A stretch of DNA of 64,000 bases from Desulfovibrionaceae bacterium (GCA_017454105.1 JAFTDR010000203.1:2529-66528), one strand, 5' to 3'. Positions 2,721 to 39,136 are shown, counted from the first letter of the stretch. Made by a program: numbers and translations. Notes: generated by a model from the sequence alone, not told the origin.

Positions 2721-3150
2721 TAGGAGATCTTCCTTTTTATCCAAGACACCGTCCAATCGTACACCGTCTAACCGTAAGGATGCGCGATTGAACGGCAAGG
2801 AGACAAGAGACTTGCGGCTTGCAATACAGGCTCTCAGTCAAAGAGCAGAGGGGCTGTATGCGAGCCCTTTGTTTGTATGGGGGGACTTTTTTTCCGTAAA
2901 AAAAATGCTGGGGAGAGTTTTTCGCTGTTTCATTGACCACAATGCGGCATGGCAGAGTAACAAAATATGCCCTCATGCGCCATACGACACACGCCTGATT
3001 TTTTTTTCGCGCGTACTGGTTGGCATACTATCGCTAAAGCTTTCACCTTGCTTTCTTTTCGCGCAGAGCGACTGACATAAGCCAAGAATCTCTGTTTCAA
3101 CTCACTTGAAAGATAGTTTTTTTTTGGATGGTGCTAAAACTAGCTCCCCC

Positions 3151-3188
3151 AAGTTCGTGTGTATCTTGTACGCAGAACTGTGCTGTAC
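3151..3188 (-). repeat. Module D copy without family C
   Basis: AAGTTCGTGTGTATCTTGTACGCAGAACTGTGCTGTAC is the near reverse complement of 33867..33904. Confidence 0.7.
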
Positions 3189-3298
3189 ACGGACTTAAGA
3201 GAAGCCAGCGCGGAAACTTTGGGCGTTTCAGTGGTACACTGCATGGGCCGTTTATGTCGCAGTTTGGGCCATGTCTTCTACTGCGGTCGCGAAAAAAG

Positions 3299-3501
3299 TT
3301 CCGCGTGTACGGATTGGCATAATATCACTCAAGCTCTGGAGCCACAAAGAACCAGGCTTTTCAGTCGTTCTTGAGTTTCGGGGCATCCTTGCCTCCTTTT
3401 AGCACAGAGCTACTGACATACGTCAAGATGCTCTGCATCGCGAGGATTCCGCTTCAACTCGCAGGGATTGAACGATATTATTGTAATCCGTACACGCGGA
3501 A
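3299..3501. mobile_element. MITE family B, 203 bp with 28-bp terminal inverted repeats
   Basis: TTCCGCGTGTACGGATTGGCATAATATC ... GATATTATTGTAATCCGTACACGCGGAA (25/28 complementary). Confidence 0.8.
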
Positions 3502-4340
3502 GAAGTTGCCAGCGATGAGCTATACTCGTGTTTCGCCCTCATCAACGGCGAAACCTTGCACTTCCTCCGATATTGGGAGGGAAGGTTTCACCCGTCGCGG
3601 GTATCCAAGATTGGGAAGTCAGACGCAGGCAGTACAAGTTGGGTTAAGGAAAAGGCGGCTGACTGTCGCTCCTGAAGGGAATTTGCAGACCATATGGGCA
3701 AGTAATTTTTGCTCAGCCCCTCATGTCAAAAGATAGACGAAAGCGTGCCAACGCTAGGATTTGCCACGCGAACTCGGACGTTGCGCATCTGCCAAACTTC
3801 ACGCAAGCCAAGCCTTTGAAGAAGCTTATGCTGGCAGTGTTTATTAAAAAGGGCACTTGCTCTCGTTACTCTTAAAAAATGTCAGGATATGTTTTTTTAG
3901 TTCACAAGGATTTTGAGGGCTGTCACAGACTTCATTTCTGGTGTCGAAACACTCTTTCAGTTTCGACAAAAGTGTTAAGATACTTTTTTACAATTCCCTA
4001 TGTTCTCACATTTGGTTAAAAAAATCTGGTTTTGTGAGTAGTCAACCAAATTACCCAAGAATTTAGGATACTCTTTAATTTCCGCCCAGCGAGTTAGCTA
4101 CTGAGAAGAGCCGCACTCCTTCGGACTTCCAACTCAAAAATATCCTTTGTAGCTAAATAGGTCTGTTTAGCTACAAAAGATTCTGTAGGATGAAAAACCC
4201 GTGTCCAGTCAAAAGGCAAGGGAACAATGCAGTTTTTAGAGAGATTCAAACCGTATCACTATCGACAAAAAACGCATCGTACCGTGGGAGAGATACGCTG
4301 AGAGACCGTTCTCCGTGAGCGGATTCAAAGTGTCAGCACT

Positions 4341-5010
4341 TCATTCTTTTTGTTCATCACTGAATGGTATACAAATACGTAATCCATCTATATGTTCTAA
4401 TAAATCATCTGGTATATGATTAAAAAGAGGATCTAATATAAAATCTATTCCTTCTCGTCTCGCGAGTTTAGCAGCGGGTACAAAATCACTATCACCTGAA
4501 ATAAGCACGATACGATCAACTTGCTTTTTGTATGCTAGTGATGCAATGTCAATGCCTATTTTTATATCAACCCTTTTTTTCAATTGAAAGGATAAAATCT
4601 TTTTCTGTTAACTCTGAAAATTTTTTTTGTCCCATTACACAGCTTTTTAATCTGGTCGGAGCAAGTGTGTAATCTATTTTTCATGTTTTGGAGCAAGTCT
4701 CTCCAAGCGAAGAGCAAATTTGCGTTTTTTTCTTTAAGATATTTAAAAAATCAGTCATTCATCTAAACAATTCAGACTTATTATAGTTAATAATTTTTTT
4801 TAGATAGGGGTGAAATATCTTTTTATCTGTCGGATAGCAGTCATAATAGAAAATTCTATATAAATAGTCGCCTATATGTTTTTTTGTAAGTCAAATGATT
4901 TCTGCAATACTCTTCAAGCTCTTTGGCTCGAAGGGCAGGACTGACTACCCCAATATATCCTGTGATTTTCTTCGGTAGAAAGCACCATCAACTAAAATAG
5001 CGGTTTTCAT
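4341..5010 (-). pseudogene. NYN (LabA/DUF88, PIN-like) RNase pseudogene
   Basis: Fragments reconstruct to MKTAILVDGAFY / YRIFYYDCYP / KFALRL / VDIKIGIDIASLAYKKQVDRIVLISGDSDFVPAAKLARREGIDF; several frameshifts (mostly in A tracts) and a TGA at a probable W codon (LFR*MTDF). Confidence 0.85.
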
Positions 5011-5023
5011 AATAGCAAAAAAG

Positions 5024-5071
5024 CCTCTAGGCTCAACACTGCCATGATCTTCGGCGGTCTACTGCTAGAGG
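5024..5071 (-). ncRNA. Candidate structured RNA directly upstream of the NYN start codon
   Basis: Outer stem CCTCTAG/CTAGAGG encloses an internal loop and an inner GCC(G)/(T)GGC hairpin; ends 13 nt before the ATG. Confidence 0.45.
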
Positions 5072-6070
5072 TACTATGAGCAAGAAGAATTTTCTGGTCT
5101 GGAGGAATGAATTAAAAATTTTGCCAAATTTCAGTAGCTGGCAATGCCCTATTTCGTTTGAGTCGATTCGTGGGCCTTTATTACTCTTGTGAACCTTTTG
5201 GCTGCACTCCTTTCATACAGGAGAGCTTTTTTCCCGTGTAGCAGCTACGATAGAGTTCCCTCGTAGAGGATCTACAATCACGCGTTGATTATTCTGCCGT
5301 TTCTTCCAGAGGCAATGGTTGTAGCCTGACGCCGTAAAAACTCGATACTCTCGTTCTATTATGCGATTTGGGCTTTTCGAGGCATCAGAGCGTACTTCCG
5401 ACTGATTTGCGATAGTTCCTGCTAAGTGCTGGGTGACTTACACGCTCTCCTCATACGTAAATTCACGTGCGACCAATGGTTTTCTATGAGTCTTGCTGTC
5501 TCATTCCAATATTGTTTCTACCACAGAGTACAAAATCAGTCAAAGCAATTTTTTCCGTCTGCGCATTTTGTAGTATTTCCGTTTTTCGAGCGTAAGCACT
5601 CCTTGAAAGGGAAGATTGCAAGTAACAGTACCTCTCCCTTTGTGTCGGCCAAAAAGCTACTGGCCGCATAATGATTTCCCATGAGAGACAGGCGAGCGAT
5701 CTCGATTGGTTGACACATGCTTGGCTACTTCGTGTCACGGGGAAGATTCTTGTGATGCCGCGTATATATACTCGCGTCGGAAAAGATCTTCCACAATGCA
5801 GCCGGTTTTACCCCATCGGAGAGCTGATTAGCCTTTAGGCGGCATCTATCTGGTTGACCTCCCTACAGTGTTCTGGAATCTCAGACCACTCATGGACACA
5901 TTTTTTTTCTGACTTGAGTAGACAAGCGCACGCGGGCCATAGTGTGGCCGCGTGCGCTTGTCTTTGTACCCTGTTCCGTTGTTACGCACGGTTTCTGGAT
6001 TTCTGGCAGAATCAGTCCAGGTCTGCTTCCAAGCAGGTGGCCCTTTTGGATTGTACCTGGGCTGTGTGAC

Positions 6071-7540
6071 TTACTTTGTGACTTTATATCGTGCGACCTG
6101 CTCGTCTAAGTCTTCTGAGCCCTGCGTTACCGTGAGTGTAAAACTCTGGAAAATCTGCTCTTCGCTCATTGAGGCTAACTGCGGGGCAGTAAAGGACTTT
6201 TCGGGCTTAGTTGCAAGTTCAATGCTGCCTGGTTTGTCGATAAAACTGTGTAGTTTTGCTTCGAGTTTTGGGAGACCTGTGCCTGCAACCTCTTTTTTGA
6301 GGAAGTCCTTTGCGGAGCCGTTACTGTGAATCACAAGGGCTGCGCGCGAAAGAAGACTTTTGTCCGTTACGCGCAGACGCAAATTTTTCAGAGGGCAGGT
6401 CTGAATTTCTTTTTCTAGATTTTTGAGGGTGCTTATACCGGCATTAAGAGATGCGTCAATGCTAAGAAGCTCTTCTATATCAATGTTTCCAGCAAGCCGG
6501 TAGTTTTTGTCTGCATCCTTGTTGCTTGAAAGCGAAAAAGTGAGGTGGAGGACTGGGGGGAGGGGAACTGTTTGCCCAGTCTGCTCTTCTAGTTCCTTTT
6601 CTATGTCTTTGGTTGGCAAAGTCACGCGCGCGATAGAGAAAAGCGATTGTTCAGCATTTTTCTTTGTGTTGAAGGTGATTGAGCCAATGTTTAAGGGGGT
6701 ATTCTCGACATGTACTGTTATATCTTCAAGGACTGTGCTTTCGACAAGCGGTGTCTCTCCCATAAGGAGATCAAAGACCGCTTCTGCGGCCGCAGGGGAT
6801 GTTCGCGAAATTGTCTGGGCAAAAGAGGTCCATTCCTCTTCGGTATAGAGGCGGATGTTTTTCTGCGTGATTTTCTTTAGGCTTAGGCGCTTCTCTGCAT
6901 TTTCCGTAACATCTAAGTTTTCAATAACACACATCCCGACCTTGTCCTTTGTTGCGTGAGTCACCTCTATGGGACCTAAGGTTATGACAAGTTTATCTTG
7001 AGCGGGGACTGTGATTGTCATAGTGTCAAGGTGTATGGCCTCGACAGAAAGCGCTGTGCGGAGAATGTCTGCCTTGCCTCCCTTCAGTGTCTCAAGATCG
7101 AGTGCGTCGATGCTCGCTTTAGAGGCTGTGGTATTGTGAATGGCAATTTCAGCGTCCTCGACACTGAGAGTAAGACCATTTGCTCTGCCTTTGGCGAGCA
7201 GGGGAATCTGCCCAGTCTTTGGAACAAGAGACTCGAAGGGGGAGAAGGCAAGAAGACCCTGCCATGTGAGGGTAAGTTGCGCTTCCTCAAATGTGCCCTT
7301 TTTGATTCTAAGCGCAGGATTGCTGCGGATGGTGAAGGGATGGATTGTGAGTGTGCGCGTGAGGGGGCTGACTGTTGTCTCAATGGGTTTTTCGGGAACC
7401 AATCCCTGTTGGGTGAAGTAGGCGTTCACCCTGTCTGCGAATTCACGCTCAAGACTTGGTTTGAGCAAAAAGTGGCCTGCTCCGGCAAGAATTGCCAGGA
7501 GAAGGAGGATACAAAGCAGAAGAATGTGGGTTCGTTTCAT
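6071..7540 (-). CDS. Hypothetical membrane-anchored protein
   Basis: Long open frame; N-terminal hydrophobic anchor MKRTHILLLCILLLLAILAGAGHFLL; directly downstream of nadB. Confidence 0.7.
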   Translation of the reverse strand: MKRTHILLLCILLLLAILAGAGHFLLKPSLEREFADRVNAYFTQQGLVPEKPIETTVSPLTRTLTIHPFTIRSNPALRIKKGTFEEAQLTLTWQGLLAFSPFESLVPKTGQIPLLAKGRANGLTLSVEDAEIAIHNTTASKASIDALDLETLKGGKADILRTALSVEAIHLDTMTITVPAQDKLVITLGPIEVTHATKDKVGMCVIENLDVTENAEKRLSLKKITQKNIRLYTEEEWTSFAQTISRTSPAAAEAVFDLLMGETPLVESTVLEDITVHVENTPLNIGSITFNTKKNAEQSLFSIARVTLPTKDIEKELEEQTGQTVPLPPVLHLTFSLSSNKDADKNYRLAGNIDIEELLSIDASLNAGISTLKNLEKEIQTCPLKNLRLRVTDKSLLSRAALVIHSNGSAKDFLKKEVAGTGLPKLEAKLHSFIDKPGSIELATKPEKSFTAPQLASMSEEQIFQSFTLTVTQGSEDLDEQVARYKVTK

Positions 7541-11828: not shown

Positions 11829-12341
11829 ATAAAATCTCCTTCATGAAGGCATCGTTTTTGATTCGCTGTCCAAACTCTTCTGCCCTAACTATCGCGTCGT
11901 CAATCAAATACGACTGCTCTAATCTTGACAGACCGGGCGTGATCTTCGCGGCATTTATGCTCGCCCTGACTTCATCTTCCCATTTTGGCGTCGTTACTAC
12001 ACCTTTATCTGCGTCTTCTAGATATTCCTGTCTGAACATGCGGTGTCCATAATATTCATGAGCAAGAACACATGCAATGCTCATCTTGTCTCGTGGGTGG
12101 GTGAGCCATACTCCAAATCTGGAAAAATATTTCTTCCTACGAACACCTTGTCTTCCGTAGGAGCATAGCAGGTTTTCGGATGCATTGGGTCATTGAAGAC
12201 AAATTCGGATTCATCTGCCTCGATCCTGCGTATTTCTTTCCTGACGAATTCAATCTCTTCTAGAGATAAGGGCTGATTCCCGACCATTCTCATTCCTCTA
12301 GATATTTCTCTTGATGTATTTTCATCTGAGATAAATTCCAT
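11716..12341 (-). pseudogene. Frameshifted metallopeptidase-like (HEYYGH) polymorphic-toxin-type domain
   Basis: ORFs 12081..12341 and 11716..12084 join into ...YGS(T)HPRDKMSIACVLAHEYYGHR...WEDEVRAS if one base is restored near 12100; GAGGT RBS before the ATG at 12341; AT-rich. Confidence 0.6.
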
Positions 12342-13155
12342 AATACCTCGAATTTGTTATAGTCAGTAAAAAATAAGTAGTTTTTTGGAAAAAAAACTAT
12401 CCGCTCACTGGTATGCTGTGGAATGCGCTTTCCTGACGATTTTGTGTTTTTGTGAGTCCGGCATGGGCGTTATTTATAGGGTAAAAGCAGGTCATAATCA
12501 TTTAAAATTTGATAAAATTTATCATAGACTTTTTTAATTATTTTACATTGTAAAGTATCCGCTCACGGGTGTATAGCGGGGCGTACATCCTACCTCGTTG
12601 TACCGCACCCATGGTAGAATGCGGACTTTGTCGGGACATAGCTGGAAGGGCCACGAGCCTGTATAGTACTGTTGAACTGTGAATAGATAGAAATATGCTT
12701 GTGTAAAATCGGTATTTATTGCTATAGACTATCTATCATTTATATAGAATTTATGTTAAAAAACTTTAGAACTTTTTGTCGGTAATATAAAAATATCTAT
12801 CCATACGGTTATTATATCTGTTTAATATGAATATAATAGTGTAGTTTTTTTATCTCAAATTTGTTTAACAAATTAATTATATTATAGTATTTTGAAAAAT
12901 ACACAATAATAACGTTATTAATTTATGATGTCTTTATATCGCCTACTAAAATATGGAAAATTTTAAATGATTATGAGCCACTTGTATGCTTGACTTTATT
13001 TTCCAATGCTACCCACTTTTAGTTCTAAGCCCCTGTCTGCGAGTGAAGCGATACGATTTCCAGTAGCCATCCACCATTTCGAATTATCCAATTCAGAGTT
13101 TTGTCTTTTCTGTTTTTGATGAGCTTTACGATCGGACCAAGTCCTGTTCTGAATT

Positions 13156-13250
13156 GATACTGCGGTCAGAAAAAAGTCGCCACTTGAAGTTAAAATATCA
13201 TACTCTGTACTGACTGCTGCTAGCAAAAATGTCAGTTTATTTCTGGCTTA
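13156..13250 (-). mobile_element. MITE family A copy (one end eroded)
   Basis: ATACTGCGGTCAGAAAAAAGTCGCCAC...GCAAAAATGTCAGTTTATTTCTGGCT matches the family consensus in reverse. Confidence 0.8.
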
Positions 13251-13879
13251 CGCCATTCTCGTCACCGTATACTCTCTTCCCTTTTGGTCGGTGGACTTAC
13301 CGCGTATCGCTAGTACAGTCGTCGCGAGTATAGTTATCAGCAATGGAATTGAGCAGGAAGTGTACACCCATTGTGAGTATACGTTCTGAGCGTACTCTAT
13401 TGGGGGATACGCAACGTGGGAGAGTACAGACCTCCCGAAATCGGCGACATTGCGCAGTTGCCTCAAATTTTTTTCTGCGTACGCAAGATGTCGCGAACTA
13501 TGAGTGTACAGAAGCAAGTTTGCCTGAACAAGATGTTTTCCTCTCCTTTTGATCGATATAGGTATCGCAAGAAGAAGTGGGATGGAAGATTGTATGCGTC
13601 GCAAGCAGTACCATTTAAGAAGTTGATTGCAATTGGGTGCATGACTTTTCGGCCACATCGTTTGCAATCAACCTGTACAAAGGCTGCCTCGCTCAGAAAT
13701 CGATGACCGGTGAGAGGAAACTCCTGCGGAACAAAGGTCCGTGCCTGGAGCGGAACGCCTTGCCCTCTCCAGAGGAGAGTCAGAAGAGAGAGCATTATTA
13801 GGTTTTCTTGAGAAAATATCTTGAATGTCTTTTGCGAGAGTGGTAAAAAAATGTAGCTTTGGGTAATCGTGAACGCAGA

Positions 13880-23967: not shown

Positions 23968-24139
23968 CAGTCTTTAGCGTTAAACCCTTCAGAGGCCTCA
24001 ATCCTTGGCGTCACAATGACTCTTCCCTGCCGACCAATGGCTGTCTAGGGAAAACAAGAATCCAGTCGGATAGAGAGAGACCTCTGGAGGATACGCTGCC
24101 TCCACTTTGTTGAATACTCGAAATCGAAAAGATTTCTTT

Positions 24140-24242
24140 TATACTCCAGCCATAAACGATACTTACACGTTTACGAAAGCGAGTCAGCACTGGGTCGCTA
24201 TTCTCAGCGTAAAGTGGCAACTTTTTTTCTGACCGCAGTATA
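24140..24242 (+). mobile_element. MITE family A copy
   Basis: TATACTCCAGCCATAAA...GAGTCAGCA...TTTCTGACCGCAGTATA, 103 bp. Confidence 0.85.
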
Positions 24243-24987
24243 AAAAAAGACAAAAACCCGCTCTCCCACAGCAAAAGCGGCATAGATATGCAGCCCTCGT
24301 GGTCAGACCGGTTTCACTCAACTTTGGCTCAATCTGCCGTTCATTTGTGCGGCAAAAAGTCTCACGAGGGACAGCCCGCACAGAGCCGAGCTCGGTGTAT
24401 ATTTCTTTTCTTAGTACAATAGAAATCGCTGGGCGCGCACCGCATGCGTACTGAGAATCACAGTGTATTGCATCTCGATTTTCAGTAAAACCATCTGAAG
24501 AAGGGGCGAATTTCAGGGTTTTCGATTGTACAGAGCAAATCGTCAAAATTCAGCTACTCAAGCGAGAAAAAATGACTCTGCGAGATGGATTTCCAAGCTA
24601 CGCTGGTTGCAAAGGTATCTGTGCTTGCCCGAAAGGACTGCTATTGAACTCCTAGAAATCTAACTTTTGCACGTTTTTATGCGTCAAATGCAAGTACCGT
24701 GACTTTGCCATAAATTTCACGAAGAAAACGAGTCTGTAATCCACATTAGCCGTGATCTCCTTAGGGGCGTAGGTACGACGTATGCGGTTTTGTTTGCATT
24801 TCACGTACAAAAACATGTAAAAATTAGATGAAAAGGCCGTCATTTCTGGCTTGCGAGGGGGAGACAGTAAGCAGCGGGGCGAATCGCTTGCAAGCAAATC
24901 ATCGAATAAAAAAATGGTGCCTGTACGACGATATGCCTGGCCCAGAAATGCGTGTGACCTCAAAGAATCGGCGAGGGGGCTATACGA

Positions 24988-25086
24988 TATACTGCGGTTA
25001 GAAAAAAAGTTGCCACATAGAGCGAACAATACCAGACTTCTGACTCCAGTTCGCAAAAATGTCATTTTGTTTCTGGCTGGAGTATA
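24988..25086 (-). mobile_element. MITE family A copy
   Basis: TATACTGCGGTTAGAAAAAAAGTTGCCAC...TTTCTGGCTGGAGTATA. Confidence 0.85.
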
Positions 25087-25465
25087 CTACCAATGATGTT
25101 TAGCTCTTATGACCTGCTACGTATTGAGTGGCAGCTAATGAGTCGCAAGTATACTTTCTGTTGCGGGAAGGATCTTTGCGCCGAAATGCAGACACTCTGA
25201 CTTCAAGTGGTAATTTTTTTTTGACCGCAGTATATACTCAGCGTGAATCCGAACGATACCGCACAGCTTGTGGCACCTGACTTGCGATGCACAAACGAAA
25301 AAAAAATACGCAGGTGGTATTTTTTCTTGCAGCTATCAGCAATTCTTCACGCAGCGGCCAATTGACGAGTTCTCACTTGGCTGCGAAGTCCGGGATACGG
25401 TCTTTTCACAAAGAGTTCTGAAGAACACAAGACGACAAATCGTGCGAAGGCTTTCGGGAGTGTGA

Positions 25466-25558
25466 TATACTCGACCGCACATTGATTTTCCGCAGAACGC
25501 TTCGAGTGACACTCTAACCTCGTCCACCTAGGGGAAAATCTTTATGAGGTTGAGTATA
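25466..25558 (+). mobile_element. MITE family C copy (93 bp)
   Basis: TATACTCGACCGCACATTGATTTTCCGCAGAACGC...CTAGGGGAAAATCTTTATGAGGTTGAGTATA. Confidence 0.8.
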
Positions 25559-25921
25559 CAAGAATCTGGCAGAGTGTACACGCGAGCCCTTGTTCGCCCG
25601 ACCACACGCGCTAAGCCGTACCTTGTGCCAGCAGACGGCTTTCGCTATTGCAGGTAGTGAGTGAAGGCCTAGCCTTGTCCGATTTGCGTCTTAGACCCAA
25701 AGTTCGCCATGGCGAACTTTGATCTTCTGCAGCAAACGGCAGTATTCGACGACTCACTGTCAATTAGAAAAGCTGCAGTGGGACATTGTTCACGCTTCAC
25801 TGTAAAAAAAAACGTACAGGTAGTCCATCCATATCGTACTTGCTGCATCCAAAAATTGGAAAACTTCACAAAAAAATTCCGCGTACACGGATTGGCAGGC
25901 TATCGCACAGTCGCTTGAGCA

Positions 25922-26022
25922 AACACTTAGGTGATAAAAAAATGGCACTTGGGGTCGAAAATACCAAACTCAGCGCTGACTCACACTCGCAAATATGTCA
26001 CTTTGTGCTTGACTGGAGTATA
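25922..26022 (-). mobile_element. MITE family A copy (diverged)
   Basis: AAAATACCAAACTCAGCGCTGACTC...CGCAAATATGTCA...CTGGAGTATA. Confidence 0.75.
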
Positions 26023-26059
26023 AGAACCAATTCGCACGTCGCAGACTCTCTCTGATTTT

Positions 26060-26247
26060 TGCCGCGTGTACGGAATAATAGTATATCGGTCACGATCGGG
26101 AACCCCAAAGAACCAGTCTATTCAGTTGCTCACGGCATTCTTGCATCCTTTTTGCAGTCACTGACTACAGATGGAGAAGACGGTCCGTGCCACGAGAAGT
26201 TCAGGGTCCACTGTTGAACGATAGTATTGTAATCCGTATACGCGGGA
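26060..26247. mobile_element. MITE family B copy
   Basis: GCCGCGTGTACGGAATAA...CAAAGAACCAG.CT.TTCAGT (core shared with the 3299 copy)...GATAGTATTGTAATCCGTATACGCGG. Confidence 0.75.
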
Positions 26248-26334
26248 TTTTTGCGCATTTTCTCAGTACAATAAAAGAACCTTGCAGCACGCGCAGTTCT
26301 CGGTATTTGACTTAGAATTGCAATCTTTTCTACG

Positions 26335-26428
26335 TATACTCAACTTTATCAAGATTTTCCTATAGGTGGCCGACGAGAGAGCGTAACTCTTAGGCGTTCT
26401 GCGGAAAATCAATGTGCAGTCGAGTATA
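26335..26428 (-). mobile_element. MITE family C copy (94 bp)
   Basis: TATACTCAAC...AAGATTTTCC...GCGTTCTGCGGAAAATCAATGTGCAGTCGAGTATA. Confidence 0.8.
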
Positions 26429-26817
26429 CCCAGAGGGCACAATTTTCCTAGGTTTCCTATTTTGCTGAGAAATTCGTCAAAAATCAGGGGACTTGAGCCA
26501 AAATGCACGAGAGCGCGAGGATTTTAGTTTTAACTCGGCAGTCCATACACGAGGAAAAAATTTTTCGCTCTGCTTTTGGCCGCTGTGATTGTGATTGGAG
26601 CTGTATTCAATGCGCGACGGAAAGTCTGTATCAGCCGAGGCTAGGGACGGGAGAGTGCACTCTTTGCGAGCAGAGATTCGGATTGTCTTTTGAGCGCCAT
26701 GGGAAGAATCACAGTGCCGATGCGTATAGCCTTGAGTTCGGATATTCTTGAAACATCCTGACTTTTTAATCCGACAGCAAAATTCGCCCTTTGCTGCGGC
26801 CTTAAAAAACGCCTTGC

Positions 26818-26921: not shown

Positions 26922-27458
26922 TCGGAAGGGGCAGCAGTCTGGTGGGGTTTGGACAAGCGCGTACAGTGTTTTCCCGCAAGAGGCATTTGCAGCGTATCTT
27001 TGTCTTTCGAGAGCTGAACCTTACGCTTTTCATAGACGCGCCGCGCAATAGGGCCGAACGTTGCGCAATCGCGAGATCCTTCTCGGCGTGCACAGACTGT
27101 GAGAACCTGCGGCGCCGCTTCTTGCGGCGAGAAAGACTTGCCCTAAGAATGAGCAGATGGCGGTTGCGTGTCACAATGATTCCGCAACAGAAAGTTGCCT
27201 TGACAGTCGCTTTCTTTCGGGATCTCGTGGGAAAACGCATGCGCGATCAGGTATACGTGCCACGTGACTTGGTGAGCGGTCGTATACTGCGGTCAGCTTG
27301 CTTGAGTATAGTATCTGGCCGGAGGAGACGGCGTACGCCTCCTCAAAGTGAGGCCAAAGTAGGGGCAGCTTTTTTCTGGCTTGAGTTGAGACAAAAGGGA
27401 AGCACTGTTTCCTAGCATTTTTTGCTTAGGAAGTTTGAGCTCTTTGGTCCCTTTGATT

Positions 27459-28466
27459 TTAGTTTTCGCAGAGAAGATGGAGAATGTGCCAGGCGATAAA
27501 GCCGAGTGTTGCGGCTGAGGGGAGAGTCAAAACCCAGGCGACAACAAGATTTCTCGCAAGACCCCAGCGAACCGCCGAGAGACGGAGTGTTGAGCCAACA
27601 CCAAAGAGAGCCGAAGAAATAGTCTGCGAGGTAGAAATTGGGGCACCGAAAAAGGAGGCCAGGGATATGACAAAACTAGCCGAGCATTCGGCTGTGAAAC
27701 CGTGGGCCGGGGAGAGTCGAAAGATACGGCTTCCCATGGTCTTCACGATTTTCCACCCGCCTATGGCTGTGCCTGTGGCCATGGCGAGGGCGCAGGATAA
27801 TTTAACCCAAAGAGGGACGGTGATGTCGCTTGAAAGCCCAAAGGTGACAAGGGCAAGTGTCATAATGCCCATTGTCTTTTGTGCATCGTTTAATCCGTGG
27901 CTTAAAGCGACGAAGCTGGCGGAGCAGCACTGGAGTTTGCGGAATATGGAATCCACTTTTTGACGTCGCATGCGGGCAAATATCCAGTATATCGCCCACA
28001 TGCCTAGAAAGCCGGCAAGAAAGCCTAAAAGAGGGGCCAAAACAATAGGTATGAGAATTTTTTGGATGATGCCTGGGAAATTCAGGCTCATGATTCCGGA
28101 ATGCGCGTATGCCGCGCCGATAAGGCCGCCTAAAAGGGCGTGCGATGAGGAGGAGGGAATGGCAAAATACCAGGTGATGCAGTTCCAGACAATCGCAGCG
28201 AACAGGGCCGCGAGAACGAGGATCTGACTGTTTTCGATCACTGCCGTGTGGACGATGCCTCCTCCGACTGTCCGCGCAACCTCCGTGCCTAAGAGGGCGC
28301 CGATAAGGTTGAGGATGGCCGCAGCCGTGACGGCAACGCGCGGTGAGATCACGCGGGTTGAGACAATAGTCGCTATGGCATTGGCGCTGTCGTGGGCTCC
28401 GTTTGTGATATCAAAGAGGAGGGCTACGACAATAATCGCTATGAGGAGGAGGGGAATATCAAACAT
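27459..28466 (-). CDS. pit: Inorganic phosphate transporter (PiT family)
   Basis: NGAHDSANAIAT and HGLNDAQK signature motifs; PSSSSH; PISTSQ. Confidence 0.95.
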   Translation of the reverse strand: MFDIPLLLIAIIVVALLFDITNGAHDSANAIATIVSTRVISPRVAVTAAAILNLIGALLGTEVARTVGGGIVHTAVIENSQILVLAALFAAIVWNCITWYFAIPSSSSHALLGGLIGAAYAHSGIMSLNFPGIIQKILIPIVLAPLLGFLAGFLGMWAIYWIFARMRRQKVDSIFRKLQCCSASFVALSHGLNDAQKTMGIMTLALVTFGLSSDITVPLWVKLSCALAMATGTAIGGWKIVKTMGSRIFRLSPAHGFTAECSASFVISLASFFGAPISTSQTISSALFGVGSTLRLSAVRWGLARNLVVAWVLTLPSAATLGFIAWHILHLLCEN

Positions 28467-36948: not shown

Positions 36949-37132
36949 GATACATTTCTCTCCTCTTAAAAAAAGCATAAGACCGTAAAGAACTTGGGAC
37001 TGAAAAGACGTACGCTGGGCTTTCTTGCGTTACACACAAAAGGCCGATTTGCTTTTGTACTCCACAGGCCTTTGCAATACAATGCCAAAAAGCGGGTGTT
37101 TGCCTGACGTCTTTTGTCTTTCGCTTTTCACC

Positions 37133-37300
37133 CAAGTTTGAGAGGCTCTTTGTACGCAGAACTGTATGCTGGAGGATCCCCAGCTCTTTGTTCACACGTG
37201 TCGCTTTTCATTCGCATTCTACTCAGCCTCATAAAGATTTTCCCCTAGGTGAACGATGTCAGAGTGTAACTCTAAGCGTTATGCGGAAAATCAATGCGCA
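37133..37300 (-). mobile_element. MITE family C copy plus module D (reverse orientation)
   Basis: ACTCAGCCTCATAAAGATTTTCCCCTAGG...GCGGAAAATCAATGCG; TTGTACGCAGAACTGT at 37150. Confidence 0.7.
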
Positions 37301-38038
37301 TGGCACGTATGCGTTGAAACTCCCAATGCATAACGCGACCGTAGGCGAATTAAGCCAAGAAGAATTGTATAGCCTAAACTATTCATCATCTGTAACGAAA
37401 ACCGAGCTTTGAGAGATTTTCCATGAAAATCGGGTAGGGAGCTAAGAACTCCGCTCCCGTACGTGCGGCGACGCAACGCTCGTCGCATACGGCGTTTCCC
37501 TTTGAAACCTGCAGTCCCGCTATGCGTCGCTTGCGGCGATTTCGACATCTTGTCTTAATTTGCATCCTCTCTTAATTTGCATCCTCGCGTATGCTGGACA
37601 AAACAAACCGACCAGACACCAGAGTCCCCCAAAGAGCCTACAATCAACGCATGTGCTGCCTGGTACCGAGAATCAGCTATCGAGATGTGATGGAGGATTT
37701 TCTCTTGTATCCCTGAGGGGGGCAGGAGCAACGTCGCTATGACGCGCAGACTCAAAGAAACTGGACGGACAGCCGAGACTCATCTGCTACTCTCAAACAG
37801 AAATGACTGTCACAAGAGATCTCTATTCATTGCTTGAGTTTCAGAGCAATGTCTCACAAGAGATGCTTTATCGCCTACCGCGCGCTGTTTGACGAAAAAA
37901 AACTGCATTGCTTCTCCCGATTGTCATCTACAATGGTGATACGCCTTGGTCTGCGATCCGTGCAATGAGAGAGATTCACGACCCTGACTATTTTGTAGTA
38001 GACATAGGTCGGCTTGACCCTAAGCTACTTAAACAGGA

Positions 38039-38141
38039 TATACTCGAGTCAGAAAAAAAATGCCTTCATACGTGACCTGTGATTTCAGGCATTGCGCTTT
38101 TCTAGCTTAACGATGGCAACTTTTTTCCCGACCGCAGTATA
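38039..38141 (+). mobile_element. MITE family A copy with divergent core
   Basis: TATACTCGAGTCAGAAA...GGCAACTTTTTTCCCGACCGCAGTATA, 103 bp. Confidence 0.75.
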
Positions 38142-38298
38142 GTTTGTTTGGAAGATTGTTTAGGCAGAAACGAGTGAAGGATGAAAAAAAGGATATCGCA
38201 GCTCAATTTCGGGGGAATTGGCGAGGATTTTGTGTGGGTGGAAAGAGTTGGTCTTAAACTGGTGACGGGTGAAATCTTCCTTCCCAACATCGTAGGAA

Positions 38299-38568
38299 GT
38301 GCGAGGTTCCGCTGTTGATGACGAAAGCGAGTATAAACGTTTGAAGAGAGATGCCACACAATGTGACGCTATTCATGAACTGGCGGAGTTGGGTACTATG
38401 TTGGAGAACGTATTGCCTGATTGGGAAGCGAAAGTTGAAAAAAGAGCAAAAAATGAAATTGCTAAAAATCTCTTAAAAATTGGTATTGCAATAGATAAGA
38501 TTATGGAGGCAACTGGTTTGTCACAACAAGACATCCTGGCATTAAAAAGTGAAACAACTAATGCTTAA
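38299..38568 (+). pseudogene. C-terminal remnant of an Rpn (recombination-promoting nuclease / transposase_31-like) gene; internal ORF 38398..38568
   Basis: EIAKNLLKIGIAIDKIMEATGLSQQDI is the typical Rpn tail; no PD-(D/E)XK domain upstream; AT-rich. Confidence 0.65.
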
Positions 38569-38924
38569 ATTGTAGAAGAGTGAGCTTAAATCAAGGTATT
38601 CGCTCGCAGGGGGAAGGTAGAATGGAGGGAAGATAGAATGGGGGGCCGCCTCATTGAAGCTTCGCTGCGATTTCTCTTCTGTTTGAGCCTCTGACAGGAG
38701 TCTTTTGTACTGAACCTGATACTCTCTTAAGCGTACGTTCCTTTCGATAGGGTATTACAATTCGAGAAGTTGATTGCAATGAGTGCCACACCGCACTGCG
38801 AGAGTATCTGGCCTCTCTGCCATAAACTCCTCCAGTCTCTTGCAATCAACCAGTAGAATCGTAATACGTAAGCGTATTGACCCTTTTGACTCCAATCCTA
38901 AACTCTTCACCATTGTGAACTTTG

Positions 38925-38966
38925 CATTGTCAACTCAAAGCGACAATTTTTTTTTCTGACCGCAGT
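38925..38966 (+). mobile_element. MITE family A right-end fragment upstream of trmD
   Basis: CAACTCAAAGCGACAATTTTTTTTTCTGACCGCAGTG. Confidence 0.75.
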
Positions 38967-39136
38967 GCTACTTTGCATCACGGGAAGAATCACTGTGATA
39001 CCCGAGTTGAGGCGCGCATGGGACCTCTTGCGGACGTCCAATATGCGTGTACGTGGGCCTAATCGCAGTGAGACCCTTCAGCGTCGTGATTGCGGCCTTT
39101 GGGCAAAAAAAGCCTAGGCCGTAAGGCAGAATTTTC

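Follow-up and report, generated by a model that had tools for sequence, protein, structure and literature searches.

The ribonuclease gene and its leader

The stretch of DNA analysed here (the window) comprises 64,000 nucleotides of a Desulfovibrionaceae bacterium (GCA_017454105.1 JAFTDR010000203.1:2529-66528). On its minus strand lies a pseudogene of an NYN domain ribonuclease, preceded on the same strand by a hairpin in which an outer helix (P1) and an inner helix (P2) are separated by an internal loop. The features of the locus are listed below, the leader being delimited by R1, a covariance model based on an alignment (A2) of 68 distinct leaders of intact NYN homologues from which the window was excluded.

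3802-4304, no strand: repeats dispersed in the genome, adjoining the cassette at its 3' end but outside it; other contigs have dozens of copies, many of them terminal on the contig
4341-5010, minus strand: NYN (PF01936) ribonuclease pseudogene, ATG 5010-5008, TGA 4343-4341 (Pfam and frameshift-aware alignment)
4569-4947, minus strand: span with about seven frameshifts, near 4947, 4885, 4731, 4676, 4656, 4633 and 4569
4759-4761, minus strand: in-frame TGA at a conserved Trp position (alignment to P0001, the best intact homologue)
5015-5075, minus strand: leader RNA motif (TEG147-like), full R1 match (model positions 1-61), U-tract included
5071-5065, minus strand: P1 5' arm CCUCUAG, pairing with 5030-5024
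5064-5056, minus strand: J12, CAGTAGACC
5060-5063, minus strand: AGUA on the 5' side of the internal loop, which resembles a sarcin-ricin/bulged-G motif (AGUA in 52/68 family leaders)
5036-5058, minus strand: P2 hairpin, ACC plus GCCG, loop AAGAUCA, UGGC, AG bulge, UGU (R1 alignment and family covariation)
5055-5052, minus strand: inner stem GCCG
5051-5045, minus strand: loop AAGATCA
5044-5041, minus strand: inner stem TGGC
5040-5031, minus strand: J21, AGTGTTGAGC
5032-5034, minus strand: GAG of the internal loop, 3' side (GAA in 44/68 and GAG in 13/68 family leaders)
5024-5030, minus strand: P1 3' arm CUAGAGG, forming with the U-tract the terminator stem
5017-5023, minus strand: C plus U6, intrinsic-terminator tail directly after P1 (63/68 leaders have 5-7 U among the 8 nt that follow P1)

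The window gene matches PF01936 at 44.7 bits in a Pfam search (gathering score 24.2), and its read-through translation, with frameshifts allowed, is 63% identical to P0001 and contains all six acidic residues of the family active site (D8, D58, D150, D156, D175 and D177). No intact ORF is present: about seven frameshifts and one in-frame TGA interrupt the frame, as a preliminary description of the locus had implied in attributing several inactivating lesions to the gene. Four or five of the frameshifts lie at or beside runs of A5-A8. Since the other long ORFs of the window contain many A/T runs of 7-8 and yet are open, the lesions are probably real and not a systematic homopolymer error. A homologue in another genome (G223:C22:117868-118512) has an internal TAA, which suggests that the nuclease has decayed elsewhere too.

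The stem/internal-loop/stem sequence quoted in the preliminary description is exact and occupies, with the U-tract, positions 5071-5017 of the minus strand; its placement directly upstream of the start codon also stands, but the ATG lies one base lower than was implied. Two points had gone unweighed there. The outer stem and U6 constitute a predicted rho-independent terminator (a 7-bp P1 with four G-C pairs, followed by C and U6), and the window copy has no promoter recognisable by sigma-70 match scoring, the best match upstream of the hairpin (8 of 12) being at the level of shuffled sequences. Between the U-tract and the ATG are 6 nt, in which no Shine-Dalgarno sequence was found, in agreement with the earlier remark that none lies outside the stem; Bdellovibrionales copies of the element are arranged likewise. 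The RNA is intact in the window, but the indel density of the ORF (7 per 670 nt) predicts about 0.6 indels for a length of 61 nt, so that selective retention of the RNA relative to the ORF is not demonstrable; chance suffices for so short a stretch, and the intactness of the RNA is not evidence of selection.

Genomic setting and foreign origin

The G+C content across positions 4400-5000 is 31-32%, compared with 49.8% for the genome. The NYN gene is present in single copy at the sole NYN locus of the 4.26-Mb assembly, genome searches found no second copy of the gene or of the RNA elsewhere in it, and the gene is absent from the 40 relatives examined. The islet is situated within a 3-kb stretch devoid of long ORFs (3073-6073), downstream of a gene for a protein of 508 amino acids (7597-6071, minus strand) that is not beside the aminotransferase gene in 11 relatives compared for synteny and an empty site. 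No Pfam match to prophage-gene remnants was found in the flanks (2800-4340 and 5012-6075), nor do these flanks resemble those of related loci at the DNA level: the match ends at 5024 and 4342. Because the nuclease gene is dead and the promoter is unrecognisable, the window locus is best described as a decayed, horizontally acquired, low-GC relic of a cassette found intact in other genomes.

Dispersed repeats at 3802-4000, 4066-4207, 4217-4304 and 5547-5600 have tens of copies across the 341-contig assembly, and the repeats flanking the NYN islet probably explain the fragmentation of the assembly. ORFs of at least 150 codons cover only 76.5% of the window, and further stretches of 1.0-2.7 kb without such ORFs are found at 481-1532, 12190-13465, 23974-26643 and 37030-39124.

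The NYN family and its prophage context

Related proteins numbered 7999 at E<=1e-5 among the candidates scored. Genome loci of the family were found in Clostridia, Bdellovibrionales, Bacteroidota and Desulfovibrio, and viral and metagenome collections each contain more than 500 stretches with family members. The gene starts 5-40 nt after the terminator of the leader and encodes a product of about 220 amino acids, in which D8, D58, D150, D156, D175 and D177 are invariant. Members of this NYN family contain an insertion of about 85 residues that forms a subdomain. No PDB relative was found by sequence; an AF2 model (pLDDT 88) has as its best and only clear PDB fold match the uncharacterised NYN/LabA-like structure 2qip.

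Dorea, Streptococcus, Lactococcus, Moraxella, Burkholderia and E. coli (lambdoid) have temperate phages that encode homologues; an intact cassette in Dorea phage DO134P1 (OP172779) has its NYN gene at 27064-27726. In Javan85, a Streptococcus phage, the NYN gene lies between an XRE-type repressor gene and an integrase gene, all in the same orientation, and of 10 viral contigs sampled, 9 have as the next gene on the same strand one for a large serine recombinase or tyrosine integrase. Upstream neighbours of the cassette include S24/HTH repressors and PemK/MazF-like ORFs; on two viral contigs, ORFs with the latter toxin domain are directly upstream (L128 2767-3522 and L159 3116-3721). The slot between repressor and integrase is where lysogens keep exclusion and defence cargo, and the setting in the lysogeny module fits a defence or toxin role of the NYN family. 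The cassette is a mobile unit of two parts, RNA and nuclease gene, and is mostly borne by prophages.

A conserved, covarying RNA precedes the NYN genes

At nearly all intact NYN genes, the 150-200 nt upstream contain a common element. From 5' to 3' it comprises a sigma-70 promoter, in many cases a short palindrome or hairpin, a linker (for example GTTAATAGTG), P1 (7-9 bp), (C/U)AGUA(A/G/C), P2 (2-3 bp plus 4-5 bp, with the loop NNNAUAN), N(C/U)GA(A/G)N, the 3' arm of P1, a U-tract, usually GGAGG, and the ATG. The best sigma-70 match in the relatives has a mean of 9.8 of 12, compared with 7.9 for shuffled sequences, and is situated 22-50 nt ahead of P1. The conserved letters that remain unpaired are AGUA, GA(A/G) and the AUA of the loop.

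In the alignment of 68 leaders, compensatory changes are present in 15 of 15 pairs, including all 8 pairs of P1; the seeds of the alignment had been chosen for a stem of 6 bp or more with a T-rich tail behind it, a choice that favours P1 and leaves P2 unselected. Paired cells amount to 90.6%, against 71.9 +/- 0.7 in shuffles, none of 500 of which reached that value, and for the 15-pair structure both sides have changed in 222 cells (57 in shuffles), with a covariation score of 0.634 (0.271 in shuffles). When the partners were slid by 1-3 columns, pairing fell to 24-60% and the covariation score to 0.19 or less, and RNAalifold independently recovered the same helices. Pairs 20:47, 21:46 and 23:41 of P2 covary although unselected, the first of them being GC in 45 leaders, UA in 9, AU in 7 and CG in 4; the window has A-U, C-G and G-C at these three pairs, where the consensus has G-C, C-G and U-A.

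The window copy matches R1 over all 61 positions at 49.1 bits (E 3.6e-12), within the range of the leaders of intact genes (36-76 bits), and its variants at the junctions (CAGUAG and UGAGC), in the loop (AUC) and in the tail (U6) are each found among intact relatives as well. In an R1 search of its own 4.26-Mb genome it is the sole strong match, the rest being plain terminators of 26-48 nt at 25 bits or less. The hairpin is thus a copy of a conserved, covarying RNA that precedes this NYN family in many bacteria and temperate phages; conserved and covarying structure upstream of intact homologues, which the preliminary description had itself proposed to look for, is present, with compensatory changes in every pair and linkage to NYN by the model.

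Folding of the window sequence by itself was rejected as support for the hairpin, the minimum free energy of -16.2 kcal/mol being unexceptional (z = -0.75; 48 of 200 shuffles equal it). This value, and the failure to find any other terminator on the minus strand between 6071 and 5075, would suit a chance structure, or a mere terminator of the upstream gene for the 508-residue protein. Such a reading is scarcely tenable: it is contradicted by the covariation in the family, by an R1 score of 49.1 bits where ordinary terminators of the same genome reach 25 bits at most, and by the motif travelling with NYN in unrelated genomes, with similarity that ends at the borders of the cassette.

The AGUA/GAA loop is missing from a Bacteroidota variant of the leader and from some variants in Clostridia. 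The Bacteroidota variant (L013, L016, L019, L021, L026-L028, L031 and L020/L023-L025) keeps P1 and the U-tract, has the junctions CUACG and GCCUAC and a much longer P2, and is preceded by a Bacteroides-type TAnnTTTG promoter; it is missed by R1. A palindrome between the -10 box and P1 also recurs (for example in L004, L005, L035, L041, L065 and L100), often as TGTAAC-N3-5-GTTACA and with other sequences in other clades; the window shows no recognisable copy of it. Either a DNA operator or a 5' stem-loop belonging to the RNA could account for it.

Linkage to NYN genes, and orphan copies of the RNA

In two sets of loci, 80/100 and 85/88 respectively (165/188 in all) have an R1 copy just upstream of the NYN gene and on its strand, the misses being Bacteroidota variants or loci without upstream DNA. 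No tandem copies on the same strand were found in the 188 loci, each of the 165 having one R1 match upstream. In all eight whole genomes searched, the single R1 match sits at the NYN gene. The pairing of NYN and RNA holds across Clostridia, Bdellovibrionales and Bacteroidota despite differing flanking genes.

Orphan copies were surveyed in 301 genomes of the class (Clostridia) of Ruminococcus sp. CAG:488. R1 matched 13 of these, once each: one match is a plain terminator, seven precede NYN genes, and five (in L203, L204, L205, L210 and L213, at about 1500-1560 in each) lack an NYN gene both locally and in the rest of the genome. Directly downstream of the orphans are genes for a tyrosine integrase (L203), a holin followed by an endolysin (L204), a HicB-like protein (L205) and a serine recombinase (L210, which retains the full promoter, hairpin and terminator), with nothing obvious downstream in L213. 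In the reverse survey of the same genomes, nine have an NYN gene, seven with an R1 match and two without; the two R1-negative genes have leaders of the same topology with different junction letters, ending in a terminator. Every NYN gene examined therefore has such an RNA, but the RNA is not always with NYN, and since 5 of 12 genuine motifs are orphans, the RNA can be maintained, and perhaps be active, where there is no nuclease. L129 also has a second, divergent RNA copy (5004-5063, minus strand; 34 bits), which lacks AGUA/GAA, has an extended -10 and upstream hairpins of its own, and is oriented convergently to an intact NYN cassette, facing its 3' end.

The orphans raise the question of whether the RNA is an independent prophage sRNA, acting in the control of lysogeny or integrase or in trans elsewhere, of which NYN is a mere frequent neighbour; in a variant of this idea, the orphans are anti-defence decoys against the NYN nucleases of other elements. 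Genomes with the motif and no NYN gene anywhere, orphans directly before integrases (L203 and L210) and the convergent second copy in L129 are all in keeping with it. We nevertheless consider it very unlikely, as each NYN gene of the family that was examined has such a leader and the association spans three lineages with differing neighbours.

Relation to the TEG147 family

At gathering scores, no family of Rfam 15 was found in the window or in 20 related loci. One leader, that of L167, which ends 7 nt before an intact NYN gene, matches RF03535 (TEG147) at 61.3 bits, above the gathering score of 56.1; that of L065 reaches 27.8 bits (E 8e-4), below it. There is no match to RF03535 in the window copy at E<=10 and none in its own genome. 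The TEG147 consensus is alike in having P1, GAGUAG, P2 with an AUA loop, CGAAA, the 3' arm of P1 and a U-run, and the helices and junction letters of the window copy (P1, the AGUA...GAA loop, P2 and the U-tract) agree with this layout; the difference is that the RF03535 model is narrow and misses, at its gathering score, the window copy and all 20 loci tested. Because L167 passes the gathering score and the layout is shared, the element is, as judged by sequence, a broad, cross-phylum version of RF03535, for whose window copy the Rfam model is too narrow.

The Rfam family TEG147 was made in a student course (PMC7779021). Teg147 itself is a 60-nt 'bona fide' sRNA of Staphylococcus aureus HG003, the GC content of which suggests horizontal acquisition (PMC5826253), and is expressed from a genomic island of S. 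aureus (PMC3053349); in NCTC 8325 it occupies 386294-386353. A literature search found no paper linking Teg147 to an NYN nuclease. For RF03535, JAR3D predicts a sarcin-ricin internal loop, a sarcin-ricin/loop-E module being normally a site of protein or tertiary contact (PMC13085918).

Conserved junction nucleotides between covarying helices, with a terminator that could serve as expression platform, are also what would be seen if the motif were a small riboswitch in which a ligand stabilises P1 and promotes termination. This is highly improbable, given a junction of the sarcin-ricin/loop-E kind, its varying sequence among lineages, and a downstream gene that encodes a mobile nuclease, not a metabolic or transport function.

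A more serious alternative is a purely cis-acting attenuator, that is, a constitutive or protein-modulated terminator with no antitoxin role in trans, in which case the NYN protein need not be a toxin. P1 and the U-tract stand between promoter and ORF in almost every locus, RF03535 is typed 'Cis-reg' in Rfam, and complete units of promoter, RNA and terminator also precede other genes (the serine recombinase of L210 and the holin of L204). However, AGUA, GA(A/G), the loop AUA and a covarying P2 exceed the needs of a terminator, Teg147 accumulates as a discrete sRNA (PMC5826253), and no competing anti-terminator fold was found: inspection by eye of the conserved linker against the P2 loop revealed neither anti-terminator nor pseudoknot pairing. 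A cis-acting role alone thus appears possible but somewhat unlikely.

Proposed mechanism

We propose, with confidence that is evenly balanced, that the terminated leader sRNA limits, and possibly neutralises, the NYN nuclease, and that the window contains a decayed copy of the horizontally acquired cassette. The first part of the cassette is the RNA of roughly 60 nt, consisting of P1, an AGUA/GA(A/G) loop of sarcin-ricin type, P2 with its AUA loop, the 3' arm of P1 and the U-tract; the second is the gene for the NYN (PIN-like) ribonuclease that follows the terminator. In intact relatives, the sigma-70 promoter would fire and most transcripts would end at P1 and the U-tract, releasing a free small RNA, so that nuclease mRNA would arise only by read-through. 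With most transcription stopping at P1/U6, the RNA would outnumber the nuclease mRNA; it would exceed the nuclease in amount and keep the expression of the latter low. For the nucleotides that are conserved but unpaired, the simplest explanation is a recognition site by which the RNA would bind the nuclease and hold it in check, as in type III toxin-antitoxin systems and in AbiF with RCd22. Attenuation, the toxicity of NYN and its neutralisation by the RNA are what we infer from the arrangement; the likeness of the scheme to RCd22 with AbiF (PMC12373285) and to the type III antitoxin RNAs is by analogy. The orphan RNAs fit either surviving antidotes or decoys, or a generic attenuator module, which is why the purely cis-acting alternative is kept alive.

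A bolder version of the proposal, quite unlikely in its entirety, is that an NYN ribonuclease, perhaps acting at the ribosome like Rae1 or on loops of sarcin-ricin type, is sequestered by a single, terminator-embedded sRNA carrying a mimic of the sarcin-ricin loop, and that the two together constitute a class of RNA-protein toxin-antitoxin or abortive-infection system that is widespread and undescribed. Orphans in prophages would then be anti-addiction or anti-defence decoys, and the window would hold a dead toxin and its surviving antidote. Speculatively, and by analogy with NYN enzymes at the ribosome (Rae1) and in CRISPR-linked immunity, a mimic of the sarcin-ricin loop would be an attractive decoy.

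If the RNA controls the nuclease, NYN/PIN-like would be a new toxin fold for RNA-protein toxin-antitoxin or abortive-infection systems, a single sarcin-ricin-loop hairpin doubling as a terminator would be a new kind of RNA antidote, and the orphan Rfam family TEG147 would gain a function. The family is large, a part of the lysogeny module of temperate phages across many phyla, and the window locus records how foreign cargo of a defence type was gained and then decayed in a region rich in repeats.

Comparison with known systems

PADLOC found only weak matches, to NYN and HEC-09 models, and a literature search found no paper describing an NYN-RNA toxin-antitoxin pair. Among NYN enzymes, Rae1/YacP is a ribosome-associated endoribonuclease (PMC12407103), and a CRISPR-associated NYN ribonuclease provides a precedent in immunity (PMC11346440); the likeness of both to the window family is confined to the NYN catalytic domain.

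The preliminary description had likened the locus to the abiF RNA motif and to a type III module. No match to RF03085 (the abiF motif) was found in the window leader even at E<=10, nor at the gathering score in the 20 related loci, and the downstream protein is NYN, not Abi_2/HEPN, so that the resemblance to abiF is not borne out. That AbiF is neutralised by an upstream RNA, as was stated there, is published (PMC12373285): in the phi027 prophage of Clostridioides difficile, the ncRNA RCd22 lowers the expression of AbiF(Cd) and neutralises the protein by direct binding. The NYN cassette is alike in being a prophage-borne unit of a putative RNase toxin preceded by a structured ncRNA, but the toxin of the C. 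difficile pair is an Abi_2 HEPN protein and its RNA has two abiF motifs, whereas the window and its relatives are without RF03085. Of the earlier overall reading, a dedicated structured RNA partner is upheld by covariation and by linkage to NYN, and the relationship to abiF falls with the missing RF03085 match.

Type III toxin-antitoxin systems (ToxIN, CptIN and TenpIN) share with the NYN cassette the order of promoter, non-coding RNA, intrinsic terminator and endoribonuclease gene, a terminator standing between RNA and nuclease gene here too, and both occur on mobile elements; the type III systems have a role in phage defence, and orphan or mimic antitoxin RNAs are known for them. They differ in the fold of the toxin, which is ToxN/AbiQ-like there and NYN/PIN-like here: Pfam finds only PF01936, and the nuclease is not a member of ToxN/AbiQ, CptN or TenpN. 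They differ also in the antitoxin, which classical type III systems encode as tandem repeats that the toxin cuts, while here it is one structured unit through which neutralisation would be exerted, and to that extent the type III-like label did not hold. In relation to the literature, the cassette extends the range of RNA-controlled RNase modules, and its RNA extends the catalogued family TEG147.
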